64,000 nucleotides of DNA from Acidobacteriota bacterium (GTDB lineage: Bacteria > Acidobacteriota > Vicinamibacteria > Vicinamibacterales > 2-12-FULL-66-21). The notes under the pieces are model-generated. The model ran no database searches. It worked only from the letters and a program-made list of their open reading frames with translations, and was not told where the DNA came from. A program made the position numbers and the translations under genes. Shown here piece by piece: positions 20,532 to 34,959 of this stretch. Location of the stretch: NCBI GenBank assembly GCA_031393955.1, contig JANMWI010000046.1, forward strand, positions 185 through 64,184, given 5' to 3'. Within the stretch, counting starts at the first letter, position 1. Every line of letters begins with the position of its first letter.

Positions 20532-21911
20532 ATGAAGCGCCGTGACGCTCTTCGCTCACTGACTCTGGCCGGTGGCGCCTCGCTGCTGACCGCCGGCCGC
20601 TCGCTGGGCCAGGCGATCGCCCCGGCGAGGACGGCGGCCGAAACCCAGGCGCGGCAAGGCGCCGGAACGGTCAAGATTCGCGACATCACGACGATCGTGA
20701 CCGCTCCCAATCGCATCCGGCTCGTCATCGTCAAGATCGACACCACCGAGCCGGGGCTGGTCGGCTGGGGCTGCGCCACGTTCACGCAGCGGGCGCTCGT
20801 CGTCCAGACTGCGCTCGAGCAGTACCTCAAGCCGTTCCTGCTCGGCCGCAACGTCGACGAGATCGAGGACATCTGGCAGTCGAGTTATGTGAGTTCCTAC
20901 TGGCGCAACGGCCCGGTGCTGTTCAATGCCATGAGCGGCATCGACATGGCGCTCTGGGACATCAAGGGCAAGCGCGCCGGGATGCCGGTCTATCAGTTGC
21001 TCGGCGGCAAGGTGCGGCAGGGGGCCGACTGCTACTTCCACGCCAGCGGCAGCAGCTTCACGGAAGTCGAGGACAGCGCGCGCAAGGCGATGGAACAGGG
21101 CTTCCGTCACGTGCGCGTGCAGGTGGCGACGCCCGGCTATGCGGGCTACGGAGCGGGCGGCGGGCGAGCCGCCGGCGCCGGCGTAGCGGACCCGATCGTT
21201 GGACCGACGAATCCGCAGGCGATCTGGGAATCAGGCCCTTACGTCCGCATGGTGCCGAAGTTCTTCGAGTATCTGCGCGGCAAGCTGGGCGACGAGGTCG
21301 AGCTGCTGCACGACGTGCACGAGCGGGTGACGCTGAATCAGGCGATCAACCTGTGCAAGGCGCTCGAGCCGTATCGTCTCTTCTTTCTCGAGGATCCGTT
21401 CCCGCCGGAGGAGAACGATCATTTCCGCATCCTCCGCCAGCAGACCAGCGTCCCGATCGCGATGGGTGAGCTGTTCAACTCGCAGCACGAGTACGTGCCG
21501 CTCATCAAGGAGCGGCTGATCGACTTCATCCGGATTCACATTTCACAGATCGGCGGATTGAGCCCGGCGCGCAAGGTCGCGGCGTTCAGCGAGTTCTTCG
21601 GCGTCCGTACCGCCTGGCATGGTCCGGGCGATGCGTCGCCGATCGCCCACGCCGCGCAGCTCGCGCTGGAGCTGGCCAGCTACAACTTCGGCGTCCACGA
21701 GGGCAGCGGCTTTCCGAAGGAGACGCAGGAGGTCTTTGTCGGCTGCCCCGAGGTCAAGAACGGCTACATGCTGGCGCAGGAGAAGCCCGGGCTGGGTATC
21801 GACGTCGACGAGAAGCTGGCCGCGAAATTCCCGGCCCCTGCGGGTCCACCCAACTTCGATTATTCGTGGGGGACGACGCGGCGGCGGGACGGAACCGTGA
21901 TCAGGCCATAG
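20532..21911 (+). CDS. Enolase-superfamily dehydratase, D-mannonate dehydratase (ManD/RspA)-like, with Tat-type signal
   Basis: The N-terminus is 'MKRRDALRSLTLAGGASLLTAGRSLGQA'. 'GLVGWGCATFTQRA' and 'NAMSGIDMALWDIKGKRAGMPVYQLLGG' match the ManD subgroup. Confidence 0.85.
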   Translation: MKRRDALRSLTLAGGASLLTAGRSLGQAIAPARTAAETQARQGAGTVKIRDITTIVTAPNRIRLVIVKIDTTEPGLVGWGCATFTQRALVVQTALEQYLKPFLLGRNVDEIEDIWQSSYVSSYWRNGPVLFNAMSGIDMALWDIKGKRAGMPVYQLLGGKVRQGADCYFHASGSSFTEVEDSARKAMEQGFRHVRVQVATPGYAGYGAGGGRAAGAGVADPIVGPTNPQAIWESGPYVRMVPKFFEYLRGKLGDEVELLHDVHERVTLNQAINLCKALEPYRLFFLEDPFPPEENDHFRILRQQTSVPIAMGELFNSQHEYVPLIKERLIDFIRIHISQIGGLSPARKVAAFSEFFGVRTAWHGPGDASPIAHAAQLALELASYNFGVHEGSGFPKETQEVFVGCPEVKNGYMLAQEKPGLGIDVDEKLAAKFPAPAGPPNFDYSWGTTRRRDGTVIRP

Positions 21912-21938
21912 GATCGCGACAGCAACGGGACGTCTGAT

Positions 21939-22880
21939 ATGAATGATCCGGTGACCCGGCGGACATTTCTCGGCGCCGCGCTCGCCGCGGCGGCGGTGAG
22001 CTCTCGGATGGAAGCGCGCGCGATGGACATGCTCGACTGCCACACCCATTTCTACGATCCGGGCCGTCCGCAGGGGGTGCCGTGGCCCGACAAGTCCGAC
22101 CGACAGCTGTATCGCCCGGTCTATCCTCGCGACTACCAGGTGCTGGCGTTGCCGCTGGGGATCACCGGTACCGTCGTCGTCGAAGCCAGCGAGTGGGTGG
22201 CGGACAACGACTGGATCCTCGACCTCGCGACAAGCGAGCCGCTGATCAAGGGATTCGTCGGGCGGCTCGAGCCAGGCGCGGCCGAATTCGGGAGCGGCGT
22301 CGAGCGCCTCGCGAAGAATCCCACGTTCCGCGGCATCCGCGTCAGCGGCCGGGAGGTCGCGTCGCTCACGGAGCCGCGGCGGCTGAACGACCTCGCCGTG
22401 CTGGCGGATCGCGGCCTGGCGCTGGACGTCAACGGCGACATCTCCTCACTGCCGACCGTCGCCGCGGTGGCGCGGGCGGTGCCACGGCTGCGGATCGTCA
22501 TCGATCACGTCGCCAACGTGCGCATCGATGGCGGGCCGCCGCCGTCCGACTGGCAGGACGGCATGGGCGCCGCCGCGACGCGGTCCAACGTCTTCTGCAA
22601 GGTTTCGGGATTGGTCGAGGGCACCGGCCGGCGCGGCGGCCAGGCGCCGGCGGATCCGGCGTTCTACCGGCCGGTCCTGGACGCGGTGTGGCGGATGTTC
22701 GGCGATGAGCGGGTCATCTTCGGCAGTAACTGGCCGGTCAGCGAAGTCTTCGCGCCGCTGGCCACCGTCGTCGGCATCGTGCGGCAGTACGTCGCCACCC
22801 GCGGCGCCGAGGCCGAGCGCCGCTACTTTGCCGGCAACGCCCGCACCGCCTACTTCGCCCATGGGGACACTCACCTTTAG
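21939..22880 (+). CDS. Amidohydrolase_2 family protein (sugar-lactonase-like) with Tat signal
   Basis: The Tat motif is 'TRRTFLGAALAAAA'. 'DCHTHFYDP' is the metal-binding start of the amidohydrolase_2 fold. The last six codons and the stop (HGDTHL*) lie inside the left inverted repeat of the 22863-23010 element. Confidence 0.8.
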   Translation: MNDPVTRRTFLGAALAAAAVSSRMEARAMDMLDCHTHFYDPGRPQGVPWPDKSDRQLYRPVYPRDYQVLALPLGITGTVVVEASEWVADNDWILDLATSEPLIKGFVGRLEPGAAEFGSGVERLAKNPTFRGIRVSGREVASLTEPRRLNDLAVLADRGLALDVNGDISSLPTVAAVARAVPRLRIVIDHVANVRIDGGPPPSDWQDGMGAAATRSNVFCKVSGLVEGTGRRGGQAPADPAFYRPVLDAVWRMFGDERVIFGSNWPVSEVFAPLATVVGIVRQYVATRGAEAERRYFAGNARTAYFAHGDTHL

Positions 22881-23010
22881 GCTAAGTTACTGAATCCAAA
22901 GGCCAACTCTCGGAATGTGGACGGATCGACTGAGGCTCCGTGGCCGATCCGGGCTCATTTCGGGATTGCTCGTTACAGTTCAACAACTTAGCCTAAAGGT
23001 GAGTGTCCCC
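22863..23010. mobile_element. 148-bp MITE-like element or long hairpin bounded by perfect 25-bp terminal inverted repeats
   Basis: The left arm GGGGACACTCACCTTTAGGCTAAGT (22863-22887) is the exact reverse complement of 22986-23010. By hand count the 98-nt interior is ~54% G+C, clearly below the flanks. It contains an inner 7-bp stem, CGGATCG (22923-22929) pairing with CGATCCG (22944-22950). No obvious target-site duplication is present. Confidence 0.6.
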
Positions 23011-23767
23011 GTTTGAGGCAGGCGAGCTGGCGGTCAGGTGTGACGCGCTGCACAAGCGCTACGGCGGCGTCGTCGCGGTCGACGGCCTGACGCTGCACGT
23101 CCGGCGCGGCGAGTGCTTCGGCCTGCTCGGGCCGAACGGCGCCGGCAAGACCACCACCATCGAGATCCTCGAAGGGCTGCTGACCCCCGACAGCGGCGAG
23201 GTCGAGATCCTCGGCCGCCGCTGGCGTCACCACGAGCGTGAGCTGCGGGAGCGCCTCGGCATCCACCTCCAGGAAACACAGCTCAGCGACAAGCTCACCG
23301 TCGAGGAGATGCTCCGGCTATTCCGCTCGTTCTATCGGCGCGGTCTGCCGATCGCCGAGCTCCTCGACATCGTCGCGCTCGAGAGCAAGCGGCGCAGCCG
23401 CGTCGGCACGCTGTCCGGCGGACAGAAGCAGCGTCTGTCGCTGGCTTGCGCGCTCGCGGGACGTCCCGACCTGCTGTTTCTCGACGAGCCGACCACCGGC
23501 CTCGACCCGCAGTCGCGCCGCCAGCTCTGGGACGTCCTCGAACGCTTTCGCGGCGACGGCGGGACCATCCTGCTGACGACGCACTACATGGATGAAGCGC
23601 AGACCCTCTGCGACCGCGTCGCGGTGGTGGATCACGGCAAGCTAATCGCGCTCGGCACGCCGCGGGAGCTCATCGCGACCCTCGCGGCGCCCCGCACGAT
23701 CGTCCAGCAAGGCACGCTCGAAGACGTCTTCATGTCGCTCACCGGACGGCACCTGCGCGATGAATAA
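23003..23767 (+). CDS. ABC transporter ATP-binding protein
   Basis: Walker A is 'GLLGPNGAGKTT', the signature is 'LSGGQKQRL' and Walker B is 'LLFLDEPTTGLD'. The only canonical in-frame start is GTG at 23003, directly after an in-frame TGA. That GTG lies inside the right inverted repeat. Confidence 0.9.
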   Translation: MSPFEAGELAVRCDALHKRYGGVVAVDGLTLHVRRGECFGLLGPNGAGKTTTIEILEGLLTPDSGEVEILGRRWRHHERELRERLGIHLQETQLSDKLTVEEMLRLFRSFYRRGLPIAELLDIVALESKRRSRVGTLSGGQKQRLSLACALAGRPDLLFLDEPTTGLDPQSRRQLWDVLERFRGDGGTILLTTHYMDEAQTLCDRVAVVDHGKLIALGTPRELIATLAAPRTIVQQGTLEDVFMSLTGRHLRDE

Positions 23768-24812
23768 GGTGGACCGCGGCGGCGCCCATCACCCCATCAT
23801 CGAGCTGACGCTGACGCGCGTGCGCGAATTCGTCCGCGAGCCGGAGGCGCTCTTCTGGACGTTCGTGTTCCCGATCGTCATGGCGCTGGTGATGGCGATG
23901 GCGTTTCCGTCGCGCGCCGCGCAGCCCGTCCAGGTCGGCATCGTCGCGGGCGCGGCGTCGGAGACGATCAGAAAGTCGCTCGCCAACGCACCCGGGCTGG
24001 CGGTGCGCGAGATTGCGCCCGGCGAGGAGCAGCGCGCGCTGCGTGAAGGGCGCGTTCACGTGCTCGTGCTCCCGACCGAGCCGCCGACTTATCGCTTCGA
24101 CGCCGCTCGCGGCGAGAGCCGCACCGCGCGGCTGGTCGTCGACGATGCCCTGAAGAGAGCGGCCGGGCGGACGGACCCGTGGACGGCGCGCGAGGAAGCG
24201 GTCGAGGTCCCGGGGTCGCGCTATGTCGACTGGCTGATTCCAGGGCTCGTCGGCATGGGCATCATGAGCAACGGCATGTGGGGGGTGGCGTTCTCCATCG
24301 TCCAGGCGCGGATGCGGAAGCTGCTGAAGCGGATGGTGGCGAGCCCGATGCAGAAGCGCGACTACCTGCTGGCGCTGCTGCTCGCGCGGCTGCTCTCGCT
24401 CGGACCGGAGGTCGCGGTCCCGCTCGGCTTCGGGGTGCTGGCCTTCCACATGCCGGTGCACGGCACCGTCGCGTCGATTGCCGCCGTGGCGGTGCTGGGC
24501 TCGCTCGCGTTTGGATCGTTCGGCCTGCTGCTGGCGACGCGCGCGCGGACGTTCGAAGCCGTCTCCGGGCTGATGAACCTGGCGATGCTGCCGATGTGGC
24601 TGCTGAGCGGCGTCTTCTTCTCCTCCTCAAATTTCCCGGAGGTGATGCAGCCGTTCATCCGGGCGCTGCCGCTGACGGCACTCGTCGACAGCCTCCGCGC
24701 CGTGACGCTCGAGGGGGCCGGCGTGACCTCGCTCGGCGCTCCGCTGCTGGTCCTCGCCGCCTGGACGGTCGTCCCGTTCGGCCTCGCGCTGCGATTCTTC
24801 CGCTGGCGCTGA
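23760..24812 (+). CDS. ABC-2 type transporter permease
   Basis: A polytopic membrane protein whose start overlaps the ATPase stop by 8 nt (ATGAATAA). It has the ABC-2 topology of one N-terminal helix, a large loop, then five helices. Confidence 0.8.
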   Translation: MNKVDRGGAHHPIIELTLTRVREFVREPEALFWTFVFPIVMALVMAMAFPSRAAQPVQVGIVAGAASETIRKSLANAPGLAVREIAPGEEQRALREGRVHVLVLPTEPPTYRFDAARGESRTARLVVDDALKRAAGRTDPWTAREEAVEVPGSRYVDWLIPGLVGMGIMSNGMWGVAFSIVQARMRKLLKRMVASPMQKRDYLLALLLARLLSLGPEVAVPLGFGVLAFHMPVHGTVASIAAVAVLGSLAFGSFGLLLATRARTFEAVSGLMNLAMLPMWLLSGVFFSSSNFPEVMQPFIRALPLTALVDSLRAVTLEGAGVTSLGAPLLVLAAWTVVPFGLALRFFRWR

Positions 24813-24821
24813 GATAGCCCG

Positions 24822-24845
24822 GCCGGCGCGTCGCCGCGCGCCGGC
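24822..24845 (+). terminator. GC-rich stem-loop downstream of the ABC-2 permease
   Basis: GCCGGCGCG (24822-24830), a tcgccg loop, and CGCGCCGGC (24837-24845) form a 9-bp perfect stem 10 nt after the stop. There is no U-tract, so terminator function is uncertain. Confidence 0.3.
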
Positions 24846-24854
24846 ACTCCCGCC

Positions 24855-24883
24855 TTGACAACATTCCCCCCTGACGGCAGACT
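24855..24883 (+). promoter_or_regulatory. Candidate sigma70-type promoter for the TonB-dependent receptor
   Basis: A perfect TTGACA (24855-24860) is followed by 17 nt and a weak CAGACT. It lies 77 nt upstream of the ATG at 24932. Confidence 0.2.
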
Positions 24884-24931
24884 GCGCAGCGCGCACGATA
24901 TCCATCATCCAGTGACGAGGGGAACAGCCCG

Positions 24932-27900
24932 ATGAAGCAGGTACAAGGACTTGCGGCCGTGCTACTGACCGTCGCCGCCGTCATCTTCCCGGCGCCGCTT
25001 GCCGCACAGGTCACGACCGGCACCATCGTCGGCACCGTCAGCGACCCCGGCGGCGTCGTCCCCGGCGCCAGCGTGACGATCCGGGAAGTCAGTCGCGGCA
25101 CGGCGGACACCGTCGTTACTGACAGCGCCGGCAGCTACACCGCGCCGTTCCTGTCGCCGGGCACCTACACGGTCGAAGTGAACGTCGCGGGCTTCAAGAA
25201 GTGGGTCCGCGCCGGCGTCGTTCTGCAGGTCAACCAGCGGGCGCGGGTCGATGCCGACCTCGAGGTCGGCGGCGTGACCGAGACGACGACCGTGACGGCG
25301 TCGGCACCGCTCCTCCGGACCGAGTCCTCCGAGGTCGGCACCGTCATCGAGGAGCGCGCGATCAAGGAACTGCCGCTGAACGGCCGGAACTTCGCGACGC
25401 TCGTCTATCTCACGCCCGGCATCACGCCCGGACAGGCGAACGAGAACCTCTCCGGGGCCAGCACCTTCAACCCGCGCGGCGCCTCGAACTTCAATGCCCT
25501 CGGACACCAGGCGAACGCCAACGCCTGGCTGCTCGACGGCATCGACAACAACGAGTACAGCTTCAACACCGTCATCGTCGCGCCGTCGGTCGAGCAGGTG
25601 CGGGAGTTCAAAGTGCTGTCGGGAGTCTTCTCCGCCGAGTTCGGCCGCGGCGCCGGCGTCGTCTCGGTGGCGACCAAGTCCGGCAGCAACGTCATGCACG
25701 GCACGGTGTTCGAGTACCTGCGCGACGACCGCTTCGACGCGCGCAACTTCTTTGTCCGCAAAGTCGCTCTGCCCGGCGGTGGCCTGAAGGTCGATCCCAA
25801 GCCGCCGCTCAACCGCCACCAGTTCGGCGGCGCCACCGGCGGGCCGCTCGTCATCCCCGGACTCTACGACGGGCACAACCGCACGTTCTTCTTCGCCGAT
25901 TACGCCGGCCTCAAGGAGACGCGCGGCCAGGTCTTCGTCAACACCGTCCCGACCGCGCAGACGCGCGGCGGCGACTTCAGCGACTTCCGCGACGCCGCCG
26001 GCAACCTGATTCCGATCTACGACCCGCTGACGACGCGGCTGAATCCGGCGTTCGACGCGTCGCGGCCGGTCGGCGCCTCGAACCCGCAGTTCCTGCGCGA
26101 CCCGTTCCCCGGCAACATCATTCCGCAGAGCCGCATGAATCCGGTCGGGCGCAACGTCGCCAGCATCTATCCGCTGCCGAACGGCCCCGGCAACTTCAAC
26201 AACTACACCTCGACCGTCAACCGCGAGGTGACCGATAACGTCTTCTCCGGCCGCATCGACCACAAGGTCTCCGACAAGTCGTCGCTGTTCGTGCGCTTCA
26301 ACTGGGGCCGCTTCAAGCTCGATGCGCCGCAGGGCCAGGCCGCCTGCTGCCTGCCGACCCCCGCCGACGCCGCGTCGCGCTTCGACCTCGGTCCGTTCGT
26401 CGCCGGCATCCAGAACACGCGGCTGACGACGCACGGCGCCGCCTTCAACTATTCGCGCGTGCTGAGCCCCCGGTTCGTCAACGAGCTGCGGCTTGGCTAC
26501 GCCCGCACCCAGCCGTTCACGTTCCAGTCCGACTTCGGGACGCACGCGGCCGACTCGCTCGGCATCCGCGGCATCAACGTCACCGAATTCACCACCGGGC
26601 TGCCGAACATCAACATCCCGGACCTGACCGGCATCTCCGGCGGCCCGGCGTTCCTGCCGGTCAACCCGAAGCAGTTCCACTGGCAGGCCGAAGACGCGCT
26701 GGTCTGGCTCAAGGGCCACCACCAGCTCAAGGTCGGCTACCGGCTGGTCGACCGCTACCCGTCGCCGTTCACCAACACCGACACCCGCGGGACGATCAAC
26801 TTCGGCCGCAACTACACCAACAACCCGATCACCAACGGCGGCGGCTCCGGCCTCGCCTCGCTCCTGACCGGCTACATCAACAACGCCGCGCGCGGCTTCC
26901 TGCTCGAACCGTACACGCTGCGTACCCAGGAGCACGGGATGTTCCTCCAGGACGACGTCAAGCTGACGCCGCGGTTCACGGTCAACGCCGGGGTCCGCTA
27001 CGAGATCTTCCGTGCCGAGACCGAGGAGCACAACAAGATCGTCAACTTCGATCCGGTCGGACTACGGCTGATCTACGCCGGTGAGGATGGCGCCAGCCGC
27101 TCGGTCAACAAGAAGACGCAGTTCGGCAACATCGCGCCGCGGCTCGGGCTGACCTACGACCTCTTCGGCAACGGCGCCACCATCCTGCGGACCGGGTTCG
27201 CCATCACCTACTTCCCGGTACAGCCGTCGGCGTCGAACATGATCGGCCAGCAGGTCCCGTACACGATCTCGCAGAACGTCAGCTTCGCGACCAATCCGAC
27301 CGACTTCTCAGCGGTCCGCACCATCGACGATCCGTTCCCGGCGATCGCCGCCGTCAAGCCGCGCACCACCGCCGAGCTGCAGGCCGCGAATCCGCGCGTC
27401 CTCGGTCATTCGTTCGCGAACGAGACCCCCTACGCCGAGCAGTGGCACCTCGGTGTCGAGCGGCGGGTGCTGCCGACGATGGCGGTGGAGCTGACGTATG
27501 CCGGCAGCGCCGGCAAACACCTGGTCTACTGCTACAACCCGAATGAAGTGCAGCCCGGAGTCGGCTCGCAGGAATCGCGGCGGCTGATCCAGCCGCTCAA
27601 CCGGCTGAGCAACATGGTGCAGTGCGACCCGCGCAACCGCTCGACCTATCACAGCGGCCAGCTCAAGGTGACGCAGCGCTTCAGCGGCGGCGTCCAGTTC
27701 CTGGTCAGCTACACCTACGGCAAGGCGCTCGACTACGGCGGATCGGCAGCGAGCGGCGGCGGCGCGGTCGGCAATCCCCAGACCGTCACCAACCTCGCGG
27801 CCGGTCATGGCCCGTCGGGCTTCGACGTGCGCCACCGCGCGGTCGTCAGCGGCGTCTGGGAGCTGCCGTGGGGCGCCGGCCGGCACTGGCTGTCGAGCGG

Positions 27901-28354
27901 CGGGCTGCTAGGCGCGGCGCTCGGCGGCTGGCAGCTCTCCGGCATCGGCACGGTGACCACCGGTCGGCCGTTCACGGTCTTCATGCAGAACGGCGTCAAC
28001 AGCGGCGCCCCGAGCTGGCCGAACCGCACCGGCTCGGGGGAGCTCGACCATCCGACCGTCGACCTCTGGTACAACCCGCGCGACTTCGCGGCACCGCCGG
28101 CCAACACCTATGGCAACACCGGACGCGGCATTCTCTACGCGCCCGGCCACGTCAACATGGATACGTCGCTGTCGAAGCGGTTCGCGGTGGTCGGCCGGTC
28201 GAACCTCGAGTTCCGCTGGGACGCCTTCAACCTGTTCAACGAGCCCGGCTTCGGCTTCCCGAATCAGAACTTCGATTCACCAACCGCCGGCCGGATCACG
28301 TCGACGATTGTCGACAACCGTTCGATGCAGTTCTCGATCAAAGTCAATTTCTAG
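24932..28354 (+). CDS. TonB-dependent receptor with N-terminal carboxypeptidase-regulatory-like domain
   Basis: A signal peptide is present. The CarboxypepD_reg-type segment is 'TGTIVGTVSDPGGVVPGASVTIRE...GSYTAPFLSPGTYTVEV'. The plug motif is 'LPLNGRNFATLVYLTPG'. A long beta-barrel ends in 'FSIKVNF'. Confidence 0.9.
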   Translation: MKQVQGLAAVLLTVAAVIFPAPLAAQVTTGTIVGTVSDPGGVVPGASVTIREVSRGTADTVVTDSAGSYTAPFLSPGTYTVEVNVAGFKKWVRAGVVLQVNQRARVDADLEVGGVTETTTVTASAPLLRTESSEVGTVIEERAIKELPLNGRNFATLVYLTPGITPGQANENLSGASTFNPRGASNFNALGHQANANAWLLDGIDNNEYSFNTVIVAPSVEQVREFKVLSGVFSAEFGRGAGVVSVATKSGSNVMHGTVFEYLRDDRFDARNFFVRKVALPGGGLKVDPKPPLNRHQFGGATGGPLVIPGLYDGHNRTFFFADYAGLKETRGQVFVNTVPTAQTRGGDFSDFRDAAGNLIPIYDPLTTRLNPAFDASRPVGASNPQFLRDPFPGNIIPQSRMNPVGRNVASIYPLPNGPGNFNNYTSTVNREVTDNVFSGRIDHKVSDKSSLFVRFNWGRFKLDAPQGQAACCLPTPADAASRFDLGPFVAGIQNTRLTTHGAAFNYSRVLSPRFVNELRLGYARTQPFTFQSDFGTHAADSLGIRGINVTEFTTGLPNINIPDLTGISGGPAFLPVNPKQFHWQAEDALVWLKGHHQLKVGYRLVDRYPSPFTNTDTRGTINFGRNYTNNPITNGGGSGLASLLTGYINNAARGFLLEPYTLRTQEHGMFLQDDVKLTPRFTVNAGVRYEIFRAETEEHNKIVNFDPVGLRLIYAGEDGASRSVNKKTQFGNIAPRLGLTYDLFGNGATILRTGFAITYFPVQPSASNMIGQQVPYTISQNVSFATNPTDFSAVRTIDDPFPAIAAVKPRTTAELQAANPRVLGHSFANETPYAEQWHLGVERRVLPTMAVELTYAGSAGKHLVYCYNPNEVQPGVGSQESRRLIQPLNRLSNMVQCDPRNRSTYHSGQLKVTQRFSGGVQFLVSYTYGKALDYGGSAASGGGAVGNPQTVTNLAAGHGPSGFDVRHRAVVSGVWELPWGAGRHWLSSGGLLGAALGGWQLSGIGTVTTGRPFTVFMQNGVNSGAPSWPNRTGSGELDHPTVDLWYNPRDFAAPPANTYGNTGRGILYAPGHVNMDTSLSKRFAVVGRSNLEFRWDAFNLFNEPGFGFPNQNFDSPTAGRITSTIVDNRSMQFSIKVNF

Positions 28355-28364
28355 GGAGCAGACG

Positions 28365-29765
28365 ATGAAATCAGCGGTGAAAGCGATGGTCGCGGCACCG
28401 GTCTCGGGCGTCGACCGGCGTTCGTTCTTCAAGACCCTCGGCGCCGGGGCGGCCGGCACCCTGGCGCTGACCGGCGCGGCCGCGGCCGAGGCCTCCGCCA
28501 ACTTCGTCCAGTCCAACGTCAAGCGCGCCTCGGAGCCGTCGGCGCTCAAGATCACCGACATGCGGGTCGCCGTGATCGTCAACGCGCCAATGACGGTGCC
28601 GTTGATCCGCATCGACACCAACCAGGGGCTGGTCGGCTGGGGAGAGGTGCGCGACGGCGGCAACGAGACCTATGCGCTGATGCTGAAGAGCCGGATTCTC
28701 GGCGAGAACCCTTGCAACGTCGACCGCGTGTTCCGGAAGATCAAGCAGTTCGGCGCCCCGGCCCGGCAGGCCGGCGGCGTCTGCGGCATCGAGATGGCGC
28801 TGATGGACCTTGCCGGCAAGGCCTGGGGCGTGCCGTGCTGGCAGATGCTCGGCGGCAAGTTCCGCGACCGCGTCCGTCTCTACGCCGACACCGTCGAGCG
28901 CGACACCGCCGAAGAGCAGGGCAAGCTGCTCAAGGAGCGCCTCGACCTCGGCATCACGTTCCTCAAGCAGGATTTCGGCATCGGCCTGCTGAAGGACGTC
29001 CCGGGCGCGCTGTCGATGCCGGCCGGCACTTCGATCGGCGGCGGCGACCGCGTCATGCATCCGTTCACCGGCATCGAGCTCACCGACAAGGGCGTCGCCT
29101 GGCTGTCGGACTGGGTCGGCGGCATCCGCGGCGTCATCGGCATGGACACGCCGCTCGCCTCGGATCACTTCGGCCACATCAGCGTCAACAGCTGCATCAA
29201 GCTCGCCCGCGGGATGGAGAAATGGAACCTGGCGTGGATGGAGGACATGGTGCCGTGGCAGCTGCCCGAGCTGCTCAAGCAGATCAAGGACTCGACGACG
29301 ACGCCGATCCTGACCGGCGAGGACCTCTACCTCAAGGAGCCGTTCATGAAGCTCATCGAGATGGGGGCGGTCGACATGATCCACCCCGACCTGGCGAGCT
29401 CGGGCGGCCTGATCGAGACGAAGAAAATCGGCGACTACGCGATGGAGCACGGCGTGCCGATGGCGATGCATTTCGCCGGCTCGCCGGTGTCGTTCATGGC
29501 CAACGTCCACACCGCCGCGGCAACCGAAAATTTCGTCGCCCTGGAGCACCATTCGATCGACGTGCCGTGGTGGGAAAGCCTGGTGCGGACGACCGGCGGC
29601 AACAAGCTGGTCGACCGCGGCTTCGCGCCGGTGCCCGACGCCCCGGGTCTCGGCGTCGAGATCAACGAAGAGGTCGTCAAGCAGCATCTCCGGCCGAAGT
29701 CGGGGCTGTTCGAGCCGACCACGCAGTGGGACGAGATCCGCAGCAACGACCGGCAGTGGAGCTGA
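28365..29765 (+). CDS. Mandelate racemase/muconate lactonizing enzyme family (enolase superfamily) protein with Tat signal
   Basis: The ATG at 28365 follows GGGAG. The Tat motif is 'DRRSFFKTLGAGAAGTLAL'. 'GLVGWGEVRDGG' and 'GIEMALMDLAGKAWGVPCWQMLGG' are present. Confidence 0.85.
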   Translation: MKSAVKAMVAAPVSGVDRRSFFKTLGAGAAGTLALTGAAAAEASANFVQSNVKRASEPSALKITDMRVAVIVNAPMTVPLIRIDTNQGLVGWGEVRDGGNETYALMLKSRILGENPCNVDRVFRKIKQFGAPARQAGGVCGIEMALMDLAGKAWGVPCWQMLGGKFRDRVRLYADTVERDTAEEQGKLLKERLDLGITFLKQDFGIGLLKDVPGALSMPAGTSIGGGDRVMHPFTGIELTDKGVAWLSDWVGGIRGVIGMDTPLASDHFGHISVNSCIKLARGMEKWNLAWMEDMVPWQLPELLKQIKDSTTTPILTGEDLYLKEPFMKLIEMGAVDMIHPDLASSGGLIETKKIGDYAMEHGVPMAMHFAGSPVSFMANVHTAAATENFVALEHHSIDVPWWESLVRTTGGNKLVDRGFAPVPDAPGLGVEINEEVVKQHLRPKSGLFEPTTQWDEIRSNDRQWS

Positions 29766-29786
29766 CCGGCCGCCGGCGGCGCGCCG

Positions 29787-30512
29787 TCAGATGCGGCCGA
29801 ACTGTTTCACGGCCTCGCCGATCGAGCGGAACTTCTCGATGAACGGCAGCATGCGGTGCTCGGTGTCGTCGAGCTCCTGGGACTTCCTGAGCACCTCCGC
29901 GGCGCGCTCGCGCGGCACGACCGCGACGCCGTCCTCGTCGGCCGTCACGATGTCCCCGGGGCTGACCCGGACGCCGGCGCACGTCACCGGCACGTTGACG
30001 CCGGTGACGCGGAAGTGATTGATGGTCGTCGACGGCGCGACGCCGCGGCTGAAGACCGGAAACTGGAGCTTGCGGATCTGCGGCGTGTCCCGCACCGACG
30101 CGTCGATGACGGCGCCGGCCAGACCGCGGTACTTCATCGCGGTCGCCATCAGCCCGCCGATCCCGGCGTAGTCGGCGGCTCTGTCGCCCTCGAGCACCAT
30201 CACGTAGACCGAGCCGGCGGGGGCCGCGTCGATGGCGTCGAGCATGCCTTTCGACGCCGCCGCCCCCTCCTTGTGCTCTTCCTGCTTCAGCAGTACGGTG
30301 ACGGCGGGGCCGGCGAACTTGGCCGGGGACAGCGGCCGCATCTCGTGCGACATGTAAGCGCGCTGGCCGTAGAGCTGTTCCATCGCGTCCGCCACCGACG
30401 CGACCTCGACCGTCCGGAAGCCATCGACCGTCCCGTCGACCGCCGGCTGCGCCATCAGCCACACCGAACCTGCCACGGCCGCCGCGGCCGTCAGGAAAAT
30501 TGCCCGTGTCAT
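29787..30512 (-). CDS. RraA-like family protein (class II aldolase/decarboxylase fold) with Sec-type signal peptide
   Basis: The signal peptide is 'MTRAIFLTAAAAVAGSVWLMAQ'. 'GAVIDASVRDTPQIRKLQFPVFSRG' and 'VSPGDIVTADEDGVAVVP' match the RraA/HMG-CHA aldolase family. GAAGGAG lies upstream. Confidence 0.8.
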   Translation of the reverse strand: MTRAIFLTAAAAVAGSVWLMAQPAVDGTVDGFRTVEVASVADAMEQLYGQRAYMSHEMRPLSPAKFAGPAVTVLLKQEEHKEGAAASKGMLDAIDAAPAGSVYVMVLEGDRAADYAGIGGLMATAMKYRGLAGAVIDASVRDTPQIRKLQFPVFSRGVAPSTTINHFRVTGVNVPVTCAGVRVSPGDIVTADEDGVAVVPRERAAEVLRKSQELDDTEHRMLPFIEKFRSIGEAVKQFGRI

Positions 30513-30531
30513 TGCTGCTCCTTCGACCGGA

Positions 30532-31443
30532 TCACTTGGGGTTGGACTGCCGAATCTCTTCGAGGCGCTTCTTCAGGTAGTCCTCGTATTCCTTCTTCAG
30601 CGCCGGATCCTTCGGCGAGCCGTAGATGTCGCTCGACTTGTACTTGCCCTCGTCGAACTTCTTGCGCGTCCATTCGTCGTGGACGTGGGTTTCGTCGGCC
30701 TTGTCGACGACCTGCTGGACGAGCGCCGGCGGAATGAAATAGACCCCTTCGGAATCGCCGAAGACCAGATCGCCGGGCATCACGGTCGCCTTGCCGATGC
30801 GAACCGGGATGTTGATGCCGCTCAGAACGACGTTGTTGATCGCGCTGGGGTGGGCGTCCCTGAAATACGCCGGCATTTCCATCCGCGAGATCCCCTCCAG
30901 ATCGCGGATCGCGCCGTCGACGACGAGGCCGCCGTTCTTGGTCGTTTTCATGACGTAATAGAACAGGTTGTCGCCGACGATCGTCCCGCCCTCGACCTGC
31001 CCGAACAGATCCACGACCAGCACGTCACCCGGCTGAAGCATGTCGATCGCGACCTGGTTGTTCAGCCGCGCGATGCCGGCCGCTTTGGCCTTGTTGGCGA
31101 TCAGGCTCTCGAGGTCCGGGCGCTGCGGCATGAACTGCACCGTGAAGGCGCGGCCGGCCAGTTTCCGCTCCGGGTGCAGCACTTTGAAACCGTCGGCGTA
31201 CTGATTGCGGAAGCCCGCTCCCGGCAGCACCGCCCAGACCTCTTCGGCCGACAGGCCGCGGGCGCGCTCGATCAGCGCATCGGGCACCTTTGGGCGGCCA
31301 TCGGCAAAGCGGTCGAACGGGTTCTGCGCGGTCAGCTCGGTCAGCTGCTCCCGCGAGAACGTGAAGAGCTGGGCGTCGGCAAGGACCGGCACCAGCACCG
31401 CCGCGGCGCAAAGTGCGGCCGCCACCGTCATTCGATGCGTCAT
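30532..31443 (-). CDS. RraA-like family protein, second paralogue, with signal peptide
   Basis: The signal peptide is 'MTHRMTVAAALCAAAVLVPVLADAQ'. 'QPGDVLVVDLFG', 'GLVVDGAIRD' and 'VMPGDLVFGDSEGVYFIP' are present. Confidence 0.75.
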   Translation of the reverse strand: MTHRMTVAAALCAAAVLVPVLADAQLFTFSREQLTELTAQNPFDRFADGRPKVPDALIERARGLSAEEVWAVLPGAGFRNQYADGFKVLHPERKLAGRAFTVQFMPQRPDLESLIANKAKAAGIARLNNQVAIDMLQPGDVLVVDLFGQVEGGTIVGDNLFYYVMKTTKNGGLVVDGAIRDLEGISRMEMPAYFRDAHPSAINNVVLSGINIPVRIGKATVMPGDLVFGDSEGVYFIPPALVQQVVDKADETHVHDEWTRKKFDEGKYKSSDIYGSPKDPALKKEYEDYLKKRLEEIRQSNPK

Positions 31444-31494
31444 CTCGGGCTACATCCTTTCGTCAGGAAAAACACCGCCTCCACGGGCGGGCGG

Positions 31495-32607
31495 TCAGGC
31501 GGTCAGCGCCGCCTGGAGCATGGCACGGGCGTAGCCGACGTTGTAAATCTCCCCGGCAAAGCCGCCGCCGCCGGGATACTGATTGCGGATCGGGCCGGCG
31601 TCGCGATCGGGGTCGATGGCGCGCGGATGCTCCGGATACAAGCCGCGCGGGTAGCGCTGGCGGACCAGCTCGCGCATCACGCCGAACATGTCGACCTCGC
31701 CCTCGTCGAGAAACACTTCGGTGTAGTCGACGTAGGGCTGCCGCACGATGACGTTCCGGTAGTGGACGTGGCTGATGCAGTCGCGCCCGCCCAGGTAGCG
31801 GCAGACCGCGATCGGATCCTCCCCCATCTCGCGCGACACGCCGCAGTCGAACGTCATGCCGTTGTGCGGGCTGCGGACGAGGTCGAGGTACTCCTTCCAG
31901 TGCGCGAAGGTCGCCATCAGCTGTTCGGAGCCGCGGCTGAGCGGCACCGGCGGATCGTTCGGATGGAGCGCCAGGCGGACGTTGGCCTTCTCGGCCTCGG
32001 GCACGACGGCCGTCAGGAACGCCCGGGCGCGCTTCAACTGCTCGGCGCGGGTGTGCGTGCCGAGGCCGTCGCGCGGCGGCAGGCGCCGCGACAGTTCGTA
32101 GTCGTAGGCCGTCAGCCCCGCGCCGGCGCGTCCGGCCTCCTCCTTGTAGCCTTCAATCAGCCGGTAGGCGTAGAAGTTGTACTCGATTACCGGCAGCCCG
32201 GCCCGGCCGGCGGCCCGCACCGATCTGATGAACCGATCGGTCTGTTCGTCCGCCTTCGGTCCCCCCCGAATCACATCGTCGATCCCGGAGATCATCAGGT
32301 TGATGAGGTCGAGCCCGGCGGCTTTGTACTGGGCGATGCGGCCGCGCAGGTCGGCCTCGTCCCACGGCATCGGCGGCCCGCCGCCGAGAACGCTGTGGAC
32401 GCCGATCTGGGCGACCCGCCGCATCGCGGCGGCGTCGGTCGAGGCGACGCCGCCGAGGCAGATCTTCGGTGTGTCCTTGCCCTCGCCCGGCATCGCCTTG
32501 AATGCCGGGGCGGCGGCGAGCGCCGGCCTGACTCCCGCCGCGCTGGCGGCGGCCGCGGCCGCCGCCGCCTGCAGCATCCGCCTACGGGAGAAGGAATGAC
32601 CGCTCAT
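31495..32607 (-). CDS. UxuA-family mannonate dehydratase-like TIM-barrel protein with Tat signal
   Basis: The Tat motif is 'SRRRMLQAAAAAAAA'. 'VIEYNFYAY', 'VRLALHPNDPPVP' and 'ISHVHYRNV' align by eye with E. coli UxuA segments ('VCYNFMPV', 'VRMAVHPDDPPRP', 'IYFTHLRS'). Confidence 0.8.
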   Translation of the reverse strand: MSGHSFSRRRMLQAAAAAAAASAAGVRPALAAAPAFKAMPGEGKDTPKICLGGVASTDAAAMRRVAQIGVHSVLGGGPPMPWDEADLRGRIAQYKAAGLDLINLMISGIDDVIRGGPKADEQTDRFIRSVRAAGRAGLPVIEYNFYAYRLIEGYKEEAGRAGAGLTAYDYELSRRLPPRDGLGTHTRAEQLKRARAFLTAVVPEAEKANVRLALHPNDPPVPLSRGSEQLMATFAHWKEYLDLVRSPHNGMTFDCGVSREMGEDPIAVCRYLGGRDCISHVHYRNVIVRQPYVDYTEVFLDEGEVDMFGVMRELVRQRYPRGLYPEHPRAIDPDRDAGPIRNQYPGGGGFAGEIYNVGYARAMLQAALTA

Positions 32608-34336
32608 GGGGCGAGAGGATAGCGGCCCGGCTGCCGGGAGGCAAGTGAAATGGGTAAGGGGTGACGCCCTTGCCCTCGATGCATTCGTAGGCTTTGCCGG
32701 TGGCGAGCTGCGTGAACTCCTCGCTTCGTCCCGACGGCCACTCGATGACGACGCGGTCGACGCGGTCGCGGGCGCCGACGCCGAAGGTCAGCGGCAGCTC
32801 CGACTGCGAGAGGTAGCTCGAGCCGCTCTTCACCACCTGCGCCGCGGTCGCGCCGCCGTGCGTGACGCGGACGGTGGCGCCGATGGCGTCGCGATTGGAC
32901 TTTACGCCGACCAGCCGGAAGCGCAGGCTGCGCCGGCCGGCGGCGTGGTCGTTGCGAAAGAGCACCGAACGGCCGCCGTTGGTCGTCATCAGCAGGTCGA
33001 CGTCGCCGTCGCCGTCGATGTCGCCGGCGGCCAGGCCGCGCCCGACCCGCGGCTGCACGAACCCGCCGCCGACCTCGCCGGCGGCGTCGCGGAAGCGGCC
33101 CGAGCCCTGATTCAGGAACAGGTGCGGCGCCTGGGCGTAGTTGGCGTTACCACGGATATTGCGCACGGTGTCGTCGATGTGGCCGTTGGCGACCGCCAGG
33201 TCGAGCTGGCCGTCGAGATCGAAATCGGCAAACAGGCATCCGAACCCGAGCCGCGTCCGCGAGGCGCCGCCGACGCCGGACGAGATCGTCACGTCGCGGT
33301 AGACACCTTTGTCGCCAGCCTGGTAGAGAGCGACCATCTCCCCTTCGAAGTTCGTCACCGCCAGGCCGGACCGTCCGACGCCGACGAAGTCGGCGGCGTC
33401 GACGCCCATGCCGGCGCGGGCCTTGCCGTCTTCGCTGAGCGCCACGCCCGCTTCGAGCGCGACGTCGCGAAACGTGCCGTTGCGCTGGTTGCGATACAGC
33501 TTGTTCGGCTGGGTGTCGTTGGCGACGAGCAGGTCCGGCCAGCCGTCCTGGTCGTGGTCGATGAGCGCGACGCCGAGCGCCTTCGAGCTCGAGTCGAAGA
33601 TTCCGCAGCTGGCGGTGATGTCCTCGAAGGTGCCGTCGCCGCGGTTCCTGAACAGCCAGCAGGTCTCGCCGCGGTAGGCCTCGGGCGTGCAGTACGACTT
33701 GCGCGTGCCGTCGATGCTGCAGAACACGTCGTGCTCGACCGACCAGCGCACGTAGTTGCAGACGAACAGGTCGAGCAGGCCGTCGCGATCGATGTCGACC
33801 CACATCGCCGAGGTGCTGAACGCCTCGCGCCCGGCGAGGCCGCTGGCGCGGGTGACGTCGATGAACCGGCCCTTGCCGGTATTGCGGAACAGCCGGTTCT
33901 GGCCGACGCAGGTCACGAACAGGTCCTGGAGGCCGTCGTTGTTGAAGTCGCCGACCGCCACGCCCATGCCGTAGACCTCGATGTCGAGTCCGGCCTCGCG
34001 GGTGACGTCGGTGAAGGTGCCGTTCCGGTTATTGCGGTAGAGCGCGAGCGTCGAGCGCTGGCGCTTGTGGCCGGGCCAGTCCATCCCGTTGATGAGGATG
34101 ATGTCCTGCCAGCCGTCGGCGTCGTAGTCGATGAAGGCGCAGCCCGAGCCGAGCGTCTCGGGCAGCAGCTTGCCCCCCCAGGCGCCGCTGTTGTGACGGA
34201 ACGTCAGGCCGGCCGCGGCGGTGACGTCGACCAGCCGGAATCCCGGCGCGGCCTGCGCCGCGGCCGCCGCTCCCGCCGGCAGCGCCGCGAGCGCCGCCCA
34301 GCTGCCGCACCGTTCGAGGAAGTCGCGCCGGTTCAC
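32582..34336 (-). CDS. CRTAC1-family protein (FG-GAP/VCBS repeats + ASPIC/UnbV C-terminal domain) with Tat-like signal
   Basis: The N-terminus is '[29 protein letters not shown]'. FG-GAP-like units repeat ('DYDADGWQDI', 'DFNNDGLQDL', 'DIDRDGLLDL', 'DHDQDGWPDL', 'DFDLDGQLDL', 'DIDGDGDVDL'). The C-terminal 'GSSYLSQSELPLTFG' is the UnbV/ASPIC signature. The start is GTG. Confidence 0.85.
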   Translation of the reverse strand: MNRRDFLERCGSWAALAALPAGAAAAAQAAPGFRLVDVTAAAGLTFRHNSGAWGGKLLPETLGSGCAFIDYDADGWQDIILINGMDWPGHKRQRSTLALYRNNRNGTFTDVTREAGLDIEVYGMGVAVGDFNNDGLQDLFVTCVGQNRLFRNTGKGRFIDVTRASGLAGREAFSTSAMWVDIDRDGLLDLFVCNYVRWSVEHDVFCSIDGTRKSYCTPEAYRGETCWLFRNRGDGTFEDITASCGIFDSSSKALGVALIDHDQDGWPDLLVANDTQPNKLYRNQRNGTFRDVALEAGVALSEDGKARAGMGVDAADFVGVGRSGLAVTNFEGEMVALYQAGDKGVYRDVTISSGVGGASRTRLGFGCLFADFDLDGQLDLAVANGHIDDTVRNIRGNANYAQAPHLFLNQGSGRFRDAAGEVGGGFVQPRVGRGLAAGDIDGDGDVDLLMTTNGGRSVLFRNDHAAGRRSLRFRLVGVKSNRDAIGATVRVTHGGATAAQVVKSGSSYLSQSELPLTFGVGARDRVDRVVIEWPSGRSEEFTQLATGKAYECIEGKGVTPYPFHLPPGSRAAILSPHERSFLLP

Positions 34337-34959
34337 AGTGGATTCACGAGGCCGTGCTGGATCGCGTAGACGACCAGCTCGGCGGTCTTGTGGACGTCGA
34401 GCGCATTCATGATGTTGGTGCGGTGGACGGCGACGGTGTTGATGCTCAACGACAGCCGCTCGGCGATCTCCCGGTTCGACAGGCCGTCGCAGATGAGCTG
34501 CAGCACCTCGAGCTCCCGGGGGGTCAGCCGCGTTCGCTCGCCGCCGGATCCTCCGGGCTTCGCGAGCGCGGGGTCGAGGACGGTCTCGCCGGCATCGACA
34601 CGGCGCACCGCGGCCGCCAGATCGAGGTCGATCGCGCTCTTGAGAACGTAGCCGCGCGCGCCCGCATCCATCGCCTGCCGGACCAGGGTCTCTTCCGCGT
34701 GCATGCTCAGCATCAGGATCCGGATGCCAGGCGCGGCGTCGAGAATCCGCCGGATGGCGGCGAGCCCGCTGGTGCCCGGCATGGCGGCGTCCATGACGAC
34801 GACGCGCGGGCGGAGGGCCAGCGCGAGGCGGACCGCCTCGTCGCCGTTACTGGCTTCGGCGACCACTGCGATCGACGGATCGTCCTCGAGCAGCCGCCGG
34901 AAGCCGCGACGGACGAGCGCGTGGTCGTCGGCAAGCAGCACTGTCAGGGTCTGTGTCAT
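34333..34959 (-). CDS. NarL/FixJ-family response regulator
   Basis: The start is at the ATG for '[19 protein letters not shown]' (34959). REC and a LuxR-type HTH, 'LTPRELEVLQLICDGLSNREIAERLSLSINTVAVHRTNIM', are present. The upstream 361 codons of track ORF 34333..36042 are an off-frame reading of the kinase gene. Confidence 0.9.
   Translation of the reverse strand: MTQTLTVLLADDHALVRRGFRRLLEDDPSIAVVAEASNGDEAVRLALALRPRVVVMDAAMPGTSGLAAIRRILDAAPGIRILMLSMHAEETLVRQAMDAGARGYVLKSAIDLDLAAAVRRVDAGETVLDPALAKPGGSGGERTRLTPRELEVLQLICDGLSNREIAERLSLSINTVAVHRTNIMNALDVHKTAELVVYAIQHGLVNPL

Follow-up and report, generated by a model that had tools for sequence, protein, structure and literature searches.

Predicted export of sugar-acid-enzyme homologues encoded around a TonB-dependent transporter in Vicinamibacterales

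Non-phosphorylative degradation of sugar acids is described as a cytoplasmic process, and in the Weimberg/Dahms and De Ley-Doudoroff variants, in the L-fucose/L-fuconolactonase route, and in glucuronate catabolism with ManD and UxuA the enzymes carry no signal peptides. The same enzyme families are encoded in a 64,000-nt stretch (~70% GC; contig JANMWI010000046.1 of assembly GCA_031393955.1, Acidobacteriota, Vicinamibacterales), designated here as the window, but with N-terminal extensions predicted to be export signals. The set includes two members of the mandelate racemase/muconate lactonizing enzyme (MR/MLE) family (ManD-like G1 and G6), an Amidohydro_2 protein (G2), a UxuA-like TIM barrel (G9), two RraA-like proteins (G7 and G8), and a CRTAC1-type propeller (G10), located around a TonB-dependent transporter (G5) (Table 1). 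In common with the cytoplasmic routes are the Amidohydro_2 lactonase (4DLF), ManD-subgroup dehydratase (3T6C, 3TW9, and 4IHC), and UxuA families; the solved homologues align from the domain start only. Moreover, the cytoplasmic routes use DHDPS/NAL- or HpcH-type aldolases and NAD(P)-dependent steps, while the locus has the RraA fold, no dehydrogenase, and a G2 protein without the strand-8 Asp.

Periplasmic oxidation of aldoses is performed in Pseudomonas, Gluconobacter, and Zymomonas by dehydrogenases with pyrroloquinoline quinone (PQQ) or flavin adenine dinucleotide (FAD) together with a periplasmic gluconolactonase, and a glucose-fructose oxidoreductase (GFOR) exported by the twin-arginine translocation (Tat) pathway is also known. 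This is a precedent for sugar lactones and acids in the periplasm, and GSDH and GMC/Gluconate_2-dh3 genes are present near the module in some relatives; however, the periplasmic part stops at lactone hydrolysis, and dehydration and C–C cleavage follow in the cytoplasm after uptake. The nearest multi-enzyme precedent is the 3-keto-glycoside pathway of Bacteroides and Alistipes (BT2156-2160 and AL1-AL5), which is predicted to be periplasmic and has members with general secretory (Sec), lipoprotein, and Tat signals (bioRxiv 10.1101/2024.03.25.586180). It also consists of families for which a cytoplasmic location is the usual annotation (xylose-isomerase-like TIM barrel and Gfo/Idh/MocA proteins), and its TIM-barrel superfamily is common to G9, but the chemistry differs, being C3 oxidation, 1,2-elimination of the glycoside, and hydration, with no enolase-superfamily, UxuA-type, or RraA-fold enzymes.

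Two further groups resemble parts of the locus. The fold and the Arg-Asp pair of G7 and G8 are those of the 4-hydroxy-4-methyl-2-oxoglutarate/4-carboxy-4-hydroxy-2-oxoadipate (HMG/CHA) aldolases LigK/ProA (3NOJ) and of RraA aldolases/oxaloacetate decarboxylases, whose characterised members are cytoplasmic and signal-less, while the equivalog cut-offs are reached by neither G7 nor G8, and G8 has RraAS2-like extensions (5X15). The transporter G5 has the domain architecture of Oar-type proteins, and enzymes and a two-component regulator adjoin it, as in utilisation loci linked to TonB-dependent transporters, which differ in that no SusD-like partner and no glycoside hydrolase are found among the annotated genes here.

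The comparison of the seven proteins with their homologues makes their export very probable as a prediction from sequence, and the locus is read here, with a probability of about 0.55, as a lineage-specific Vicinamibacteria periplasmic module in which metal-only enzymes would act on acidic sugar-like substrates. Searches of open-access full texts gave no paper on exported ManD, UxuA, or RraA proteins or on other exported members of the enolase superfamily; enolase-superfamily dehydratases, UxuA, and RraA/HMG-aldolase proteins have so far been studied as cytoplasmic enzymes, and the families and the export routes at the locus are each known, while their combination and the compartment are apparently unreported. 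If the periplasmic function is true, dehydration and aldol cleavage would be added to the oxidation and hydrolysis already known in periplasmic metabolism, and the candidate substrates, soil-metagenome annotation, and the view of how Acidobacteria use their many TonB-dependent transporters would all change. Few groups of soil bacteria are as abundant as the Acidobacteria or as little understood.

Export signals and their conservation

Signals were called by a simple TATFIND-style rule set. For a Tat signal, an RR pair in a basic n-region resembling (S/T)RRxFLK was sought, together with a hydrophobic region (h-region) of at least 13 uncharged, moderately hydrophobic residues and a small-x-small site after it. 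G1, G2, G6, G9, and G10 were called Tat-like, and G7 and G8 were called Sec-like, together with U1, U2, and G5. Cytoplasmic controls of the same window, namely, phosphoenolpyruvate carboxykinase, succinate-semialdehyde dehydrogenase (SSADH), a GlcD-like protein, a short-chain dehydrogenase/reductase, phosphoadenosine phosphosulfate reductase, the ATP-binding cassette (ABC) ATPase, and response regulators, obtained neither call, and one signal-less enzyme, a 2-oxo-tetronate isomerase-like TIM barrel, obtained a marginal Sec-like call. Since null open reading frames (ORFs) rarely pass the rules (Tat-like 4/163, 2.5%; Sec-like 2/163, 1.2% of spurious ORFs), seven positive calls out of seven are far beyond chance. 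An artefact of GC-rich sequence was rejected as a source of the calls on account of these low rates and the negative cytoplasmic controls.

The motifs on which the sequence-only reading had based its export proposal were all located at the N-termini. They are canonical in G2 (TRRTFLG) and G6 (DRRSFFK) and variant in G9 (SRRRMLQ), G10 (NRRDFLE), and G1 (KRRDALR). The h-regions of the five Tat-like proteins are uncharged, 14-24 residues long, with a mean Kyte-Doolittle value of 1.35-2.02 and A-x-A-type sites after them; in G1, G6, G9, and G10, not in G2, they are weakly hydrophobic, which is typical of Tat. G7 and G8 show the features of Sec type I signals, in which a basic n-region leads into 10-15 residues of hydrophobic core with small residues at -3/-1, and these features are conserved in orthologues. 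Relative to family profiles and solved homologues the N-terminal extensions comprise 47 (G1), ~30 (G2), ~60 (G6), ~20-27 (G7), and ~47 (G8) residues and lie outside the regions aligned with the solved homologues found. The GC content at third codon positions is 0.69-0.85 in the signal segments, 0.78-0.89 in the mature regions, and 0.35-0.73 in upstream DNA, and the AlphaFold model of G9 (mean predicted local distance difference test (pLDDT) 62.8) has a lone helix at residues 8-22, a disordered linker, and then the barrel.

Start sites downstream of the RR pairs, which would have removed the signals, were considered and rejected. The next in-frame start is codon 55 in G1 and codon 65 in G6 (counted from ATG 28365), both inside the catalytic domain, and at the candidate start of G9 (Met11, directly after the RR pair) most orthologues have Leu or Ile.

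The signals are kept in orthologues down to about 50-65% identity. In the ManD-like family M(N/K)RRD occupies residues 1-5 in 119/120 homologues of G1 (81-91% identical), followed by a variable Gly/Ser/Ala/Leu-rich stretch and an A-x-A-like site. The panel of G6 consisted of 80 species-level relatives, annotated as Vicinamibacteria/Vicinamibacterales with a few Blastocatellia, and RRSFFK(T/S)LG is present in essentially all of these orthologues (64-92% identity), while the n-region and c-region drift. For G9 the motif (S/T)RRxxL(Q/K) was found in 111/120 homologues, the other 9 being gene calls that start at a Met right after the RR pair. As to the Sec-type proteins, in 115/120 homologues of G8 the basic n-region is followed by a hydrophobic core, and (S/A)-x-A directly precedes the invariant mature N-terminus QLF(T/S), and the signals of 13 orthologues of G7 end with A-Q-P or equivalent. 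NRR(D/E)F(L/M) of G10 is kept in two orthologues (loci L005 and L008), and in a third (L007) KRRDFL appears in the in-frame upstream translation. When 120 N-termini of three unrelated families (G1, G6, and G9) were aligned jointly, the two Arg were the only invariant columns. The architecture (RR pair, uncharged h-region, and small-x-small site) is conserved while the residues vary. Together with the rule-set calls and the negative controls, this conservation bears out the seven signals of the sequence-only reading, and it strongly suggests that the N-terminal extensions behave as real export signals.

Automated gene calls sometimes cut signals off, and the exported pattern is for this reason under-reported. 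Public calls begin the UxuA-like gene after the RR motif (MPSEG... or MLQA...) in two relatives (L088 8888-9889 and L089 8832-9839), as well as in the 9/120 homologues of G9 mentioned above, with the Tat motif in frame just upstream.

Signal-bearing members of these families are common. The signal-bearing clades of G1, G8, and G9 include thousands of metagenome sequences each. At E<=1e-30, 763 relatives of G1 were obtained from 1.84 billion cluster representatives, and among the best 150 of these 763 the N-terminus was covered in 78: 33 had no extension (classical cytoplasmic type), ~24 had diverse Tat-like signals, 1 had a Sec-like signal, and 20 had other extensions. About one-third of the family clusters nearest to G1 (~24/78, within the best 150 of 763) have therefore Tat-type signals, including divergent members with canonical motifs such as MKRRNFLKTAGIG and MNRRELLKTLGVG; Bryobacteraceae is the only taxon name recorded among the divergent clusters. 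Judged by these N-termini, Tat-bearing ManD-type enzymes are a broad, divergent group. In surveys of the Gerlt laboratory many ManD-subgroup members were reportedly weak or inactive on the acid-sugar library, and if the proposed function is true, a large Tat-bearing fraction of ManD proteins would have periplasmic substrates that were never included in activity screens.

Enzyme families and possible chemistry

The seven family assignments made by the sequence-only reading (ManD-like, MR/MLE, Amidohydro_2, UxuA-like, two RraA-like, and CRTAC1) agree with both Pfam and NCBIfam. For G1 the best model is ManD (Pfam MR_MLE_N and MR_MLE_C 157 and 81 bits), and the nearest structures belong to the ManD subgroup: 3T6C (E 2e-143, aligned from residue 48), 3TW9, and 4IHC. 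Its LLHDVHER, FLEDP, and MGELF segments are identical in the alignment with 3T6C and the D-x-H / E / E metal motifs are intact, their Asp/Glu/Glu residues being taken here as the metal ligands of the superfamily. The score nevertheless stays under the ManD cut-offs (NF043051, 414 vs 550 bits; PRK15072, 413 vs 430). For G6 the nearest structure is 2QQ6 (PDB name “Mandelate racemase/muconate lactonizing enzyme-like protein”). G6 obtains its highest scores from the models of galactonate, gluconate, and mannonate dehydratases, and it also keeps the D-x-H / E / E motifs.

G9 matches Pfam UxuA with 93 bits over the C-terminal half only and is under the UxuA equivalogs (TIGR00695, 51.6 vs 199.6 bits; PRK03906, 84.8 vs 191), with 17-23% identity to the solved UxuA structures. 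The AlphaFold2 model compared by Foldseek gives UxuA 1TZ9, 3BAN, and 4EAC as the top matches over the full length (E 6e-16 to 4e-12, TM 0.6-0.7), and other xylose-isomerase-like barrels match less well; according to this model the UxuA fold extends over the whole of G9.

The RraA-like Pfam scores are 138 bits for G7, which resembles HMG/CHA aldolase 3NOJ and also 3K4I, and 95 bits for G8, which resembles the 270-residue 5X15. The Arg-Asp pair of 3NOJ is kept as VRD (G7) and IRD (G8), presumably as catalytic Arg and metal-binding Asp. The LigK/PcmE equivalog cut-offs are missed by G7 (124 vs 179 and 112.5 vs 304.5 bits), and G8 scores lower.

The nearest structure of G2 is the L-fucono-1,5-lactonase 4DLF, the putative 2-pyrone-4,6-dicarboxylate (PDC) hydrolase 2FFI is also matched, and the strand-1 HxH is present (DCHTHF). 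G10 is an FG-GAP/ASPIC propeller by Pfam. Among the upstream genes, U1 has weak PDB matches to CE1 feruloyl/xylan esterases. U2 is assigned to DUF6786 (Pfam E 1.6e-147) with no PDB or NCBIfam match and with a single-sequence structure model that is unusable (pLDDT 33); the nature of the substrate may become clear from what U2 does.

In the proposed mechanism an acidic sugar or sugar-like substrate would enter through the adjacent G5, and G1, G2, G6, G9, and G10 would be exported via Tat, presumably folded and metal-loaded, while the small RraA-fold proteins G7 and G8 would use Sec. The enolase-superfamily (G1 and G6) and UxuA-like (G9) enzymes would perform β-elimination of water, after which the RraA-fold pair would act by metal-dependent retro-aldol cleavage or decarboxylation. 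Expression would be under the control of the two-component system encoded upstream of G10. The families of the exported enzymes need at most a divalent metal and could therefore work without ATP or NAD(P), whereas the signal-less neighbours (ABC ATPase, GlcD-like FAD oxidase, NAD-dependent epimerase, and SSADH) are nucleotide-dependent; this internal consistency supports a periplasmic mechanism.

For the parts of this mechanism the confidence differs. Substrates of sugar-acid type are somewhat favoured. That the lower half of a sugar-acid route is placed in the periplasm, with dehydration and then RraA-fold C–C cleavage by metal-dependent enzymes only, is a tentative proposal, under which a TonB-imported substrate would be converted to pyruvate-sized products before crossing the inner membrane. 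The linear pathway from lactone through acid and keto-deoxy-acid to pyruvate and aldehyde, as first proposed, is similarly doubtful.

The module may act instead on ring-fission or other acidic products of aromatic or lignin-derived compounds, which is considered improbable. The lower pathway of protocatechuate 4,5-cleavage consists of the same Pfam families, with Amidohydro_2 as LigI/LigJ and the RraA-like fold as LigK (HMG/CHA aldolase); the best characterised structural relative of G7 is the HMG/CHA aldolase 3NOJ, with LigK equivalogs scoring 112-124 bits, and the match of G2 to 2FFI points in the same direction. TonB-dependent uptake of a lignin-derived aromatic compound is also reported (PMC6874591). 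Against this, G1 falls clearly into the ManD subgroup (E 2e-143 to 3T6C), G6 prefers the galactonate, gluconate, and mannonate dehydratase models to muconate cycloisomerase, G9 has the UxuA fold, the LigK cut-offs (179 and 304 bits) are missed, and no dioxygenase is encoded in the window.

Gene neighbourhoods and the weight of the evidence

The proteins of the window were mapped onto the 80 G6-orthologue loci. At G6 identity of at least 77%, G5 is directly upstream in 11/22 loci, at least two of G7/G8/G9 are within 10 kb in 9/16, and a G1 orthologue is within 10 kb in 5/16. The corresponding counts are 1/22, 1/20, and 1/20 at 70-77% and 0/22, 0/13, and 5/13 at 60-70%; G5 is directly 5' of G6 in only 1/44 of the more distant orthologue loci, and no SusD-like gene was seen. 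Among orthologues of G8, same-strand G9 is adjacent in 13/17 and G7 in 12/17. The conserved core consists of the TonB-dependent transporter and the MR_MLE gene, convergent with the UxuA-like, RraA, and RraA genes, while U1-U2-G1-G2 is a second, looser module, whose order is shared with L002 and L004. U2 is conserved 5' of G1 in L001, L002, and L008, and in the closest relatives it comes before the G1-G2 pair without exception. Synteny extends to the two-component system in L004, L005, L007, and L008. Of the two transport systems that the sequence-only reading had placed with the enzymes, the TonB-dependent receptor is co-conserved with the core in close relatives, but the ABC-2 exporter (G3/G4) adjoins the cluster only in the closest relatives, L001 and L004, and is outside the core. 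In L004, a contig of a Nanopore-derived metagenome-assembled genome, G1 and G5 are not in the match list and G10 is aligned only from residue 82 (62% identity), which is probably due to frameshift errors splitting the tblastn matches, not to real gene loss.

When the search was anchored on G8 homologues (L087-L089), the UxuA-like gene and then the RraA gene (303 aa) were again found convergent with MR_MLE (459-466 aa) and a CarboxypepD_reg transporter. The second RraA gene (~249 aa) follows directly in L088 and L089, and in L087 a second RraA gene (236 aa) is ~9 kb away; in L089 a TonB gene adjoins the core. L087 (6360-8613) encodes, divergently from the UxuA-like gene, a GMC oxidoreductase together with a small subunit of the Gluconate_2-dh3 type. 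This pair is a signature of periplasm-facing FAD sugar dehydrogenases and a candidate for the oxidising step, the only one adjoining the core, and its called N-termini have no obvious signal. L088 and L089 contain a Sec-type Amidohydro_3 protein and a Tat-type unknown protein, followed by a RidA/L-PSP protein just 5' of the UxuA-like/RraA/RraA block, as well as a same-operon NAD-dependent epimerase without signal. The RidA protein, classically cytoplasmic, has a clear Tat signal MTMAKSNRRAFLTKAPAVAVAAAAMAP (L088 8286-8768 and L089 8131-8613).

Several observations weigh against the periplasmic sugar-acid module. The first concern the signals. PF10518 remains below its cut-off of 22.7 bits in all Tat-like proteins (G2 20.5, G6 19.3, G9 17.2, G10 8.4, and G1 none), TIGR01409 gives at most 15.2 bits vs 16.7, these curated models being so short (21 and 29 positions) that the missed cut-offs are not taken as a refutation, and PF10518 at E<=0.01 matches just 20/120 orthologue N-termini; the G1 motif RRDALRS is non-canonical, the least canonical of the set. 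It may be supposed from the missed thresholds, and from the public gene calls that begin after RR (9/120 for G9; calls of the Joint Genome Institute (JGI) in L088 and L089), that the extensions are mis-called starts, cytoplasmic leaders, or uncleaved anchors and that the enzymes stay in or at the cytoplasm. Such an explanation is very improbable, because in G1 and G6 the first alternative in-frame start already lies within the catalytic domain, the alternative Met of G9 is not conserved, and RR is invariant across hundreds of sequences while its surroundings drift, at a null rate of 1-3%.

The second group concerns the chemistry. All enzymes score below the NCBIfam equivalog cut-offs, and therefore family membership only can be claimed, with specificities unassigned. 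Neither a sugar dehydrogenase nor an inner-membrane importer for the products was found in the annotated window; for the former reason the claim that every enzyme type needed is present was overstated, and a complete oxidative route is not encoded here. In strand 8 G2 has GSNWPVSE (residues 262-269, nt 22722-22745), with Asn in place of the Asp of GSDWP in 4DLF and 2FFI, and this Asn is fixed in G2 and all 5 orthologues; 6UVZ (PDB name “Amidohydrolase 2”) has SNWPV.E in common with G2. Since Asn replaces the Asp that we take to be the catalytic base, as in LigI and BmulJ_04915, the earlier designation as lactonase is doubtful, and G2 is also under the NF052480 cut-off (106 vs 400 bits); the sequence features point to an Asn-type Amidohydro_2 subgroup whose chemistry may differ from lactone hydrolysis. 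To our knowledge, RraA-fold aldolases have been characterised on 4-hydroxy-2-oxo-dicarboxylates of aromatic catabolism, not on 2-keto-3-deoxy sugar acids, and a literature search for RraA-fold aldolases acting on sugar acids found no counter-example. The first interpretation is on the whole partly supported, the pathway being its weakest part.

The placement of the enzymes downstream of outer-membrane uptake was an assumption, since Oar, itself a transporter of the CarboxypepD_reg type, is needed for the secretion of protein (PMC6434023). In Myxococcus the protease PopC cannot be secreted from the periplasm without Oar and ExbBD-TonB, and the PF13620, Plug, and barrel architecture of G5 is that of Myxococcus Oar, by which G5 might secrete one or more of the enzymes across the outer membrane for extracellular action. 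This has only a slight chance of being true: PopC is the single documented case of secretion by such a transporter, SusC-type importers also have a CarboxypepD_reg-like domain (PF13620 and PF13715 were pooled in PMC6434023 since the models largely overlap), and small-molecule dehydratases and aldolases would gain little extracellularly.

The third group concerns gene order. Conservation of the cluster is limited to close relatives within Vicinamibacteria, and below ~77% G6 identity the cluster dissolves; of the joint retention of signals and synteny in orthologues that the sequence-only reading called for, the signals persist to about 50-65% identity and the synteny is shallow. The 119 neighbours of distant G6 orthologues are heterogeneous (109 families in a pooled Pfam scan), and sugar dehydrogenases (GSDH and GMC) and acid importers (TRAP/SBF), which speak for the module, occur among them, no enrichment over a genome background being claimed. 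Divergent Tat-type ManD genes (L084-L086) have no shared neighbourhood, and two of them on long contigs stand alone in unrelated contexts; export is therefore no proof of this particular pathway. What is general is the export; the clustering is local.

These facts lead to the most serious alternative, still rather unlikely, in which the proteins are exported yet are independent periplasmic enzymes of families expanded in Acidobacteria, forming a loose island near one of many TonB-dependent transporters. The collapse of synteny with persisting signals, the 109 Pfam families around distant G6 genes, the stand-alone ManDs, and a second Tat-type Amidohydro_2 gene elsewhere in the window (50938-52161) are all in agreement with it. 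It does not explain the tight G7-G8-G9 block, with 13/17 and 12/17 adjacencies, the 26-nt G10/G9 overlap, and gaps of 19-51 nt, nor the recurrence of this block beside MR_MLE and a transporter in independent contigs, which argue for the lineage-specific module.

Locus layout and neighbouring features

Genes were separated from spurious ORFs by codon-position GC. The locus is made up of two convergent gene sets: U1, U2, G1, G2, G3/G4, G5, and G6 on the plus strand, with gaps of 10-122 nt, and the histidine kinase, the LuxR-type response regulator, G10, G9, G8, and G7 on the minus strand, with overlaps of 4 nt (G10 and the response-regulator gene) and 26 nt (G10 and G9) and gaps of 51 and 19 nt. 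The kinase and the response regulator are the probable regulators. The start of G6 was corrected to the ATG at 28365 from the longest-ORF start at 28110, the sole change to the coordinates given earlier. Near-identical or identical proteins are found on soil Acidobacteriota metagenome-assembled contigs, for G1 on JANMQS010000812.1 (GCA_031370705.1) and for G8 on a 94-kb NCBI contig.

Table 1. Genes of the locus, with positions in the window; a slash marks the predicted cleavage site
Feature	Position (nt)	Strand	Assignment and N-terminus
U1	18179..19171	+	Exported esterase (PF00756), distant CE1-like similarity; Sec-like N-terminus
U2	19269..20513	+	DUF6786 lipoprotein, lipobox LLAAG/C; directly 5' of G1
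G1	20532..21911	+	MR_MLE_N+C, ManD-subgroup, 459 aa; Tat-like signal ~residues 1-28 (nt 20532-20615) MKRRDALRSLTLAGGASLLTAGRSLGQA/IAP
G2	21939..22880	+	Amidohydro_2 (cog3618-like), 313 aa; Tat-like signal residues 1-28 (nt 21939-22022) TRRTFLGAALAAAAVSSRMEARA/M
G3/G4	23003..24812	+	ABC ATPase and ABC-2 permease (DrrAB/NodIJ-like); without signals
G5	24932..28354	+	TonB-dependent transporter, CarboxypepD_reg + Plug + OMP_b-brl_4 (Oar type), 1140 aa; Sec signal
G6	28365..29765	+	MR_MLE_N+C, acid-sugar-dehydratase-like, 466 aa; canonical Tat signal residues 1-45 (nt 28365-28499) DRRSFFKTLGAGAAGTLALTGAAAAEASA/N
G7	29787..30512	-	RraA-like / HMG-CHA-aldolase fold, 241 aa; Sec signal residues 1-21 (nt 30450-30512) MTRAIFLTAAAAVAGSVWLMA/QP
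G8	30532..31443	-	RraA-like, elaborated at both termini (RraAS2/5X15-like), 303 aa; Sec signal residues 1-24 (nt 31372-31443) ...VLVPVLADA/QLF
G9	31495..32607	-	UxuA/AP_endonuc_2, distant UxuA-like TIM barrel, 370 aa; Tat signal ~residues 1-31 (nt 32515-32607), then /A
G10	32582..34336	-	CRTAC1/ASPIC-like β-propeller, FG-GAP repeats + UnbV_ASPIC, 584 aa; Tat-like signal ~residues 1-29 (nt 34250-34336)
Regulators	34333..36677	-	LuxR-type response regulator (34333-35001) and HisKA_3 histidine kinase, upstream of G10-G9-G8-G7

A scan of the region for promoters and terminators was not above chance (0 promoters; 10 terminator-like sites vs 7.6 expected), and Rfam and tRNA scans of the window gave no matches. 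In the 51-nt gap between G9 and G8 a GC-rich hairpin is followed by a T-run (CCGCCCGTGGAGGCGG TGTTTTT; 31475-31490, minus strand), which could be an internal terminator or attenuator.

Proteins of the DUF885 family with signal-like N-termini are encoded on both flanks, at 14498-16264 (plus strand) and within 37159-41915 (plus strand), the second directly 3' of another CarboxypepD_reg-type TonB-dependent transporter; DUF885 was also found in 6/119 neighbours of distant G6 orthologues. A stretch left empty by the filter on third-position GC contains a long ORF (~42259-44480, minus strand) whose start is signal-like. The second Tat-like Amidohydro_2 protein (50938-52161, minus strand) has the N-terminus MNRRQWLSGVAAALPLSAAVP and an extension of ~70 residues. 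Divergent from its gene is that of a signal-less TIM barrel (52223-52993, plus strand), with the best match to 2-oxo-tetronate isomerase/hydroxypyruvate isomerase (268 bits vs a cut-off of 325), and the two could be another exported/cytoplasmic pair acting on small acid sugars.

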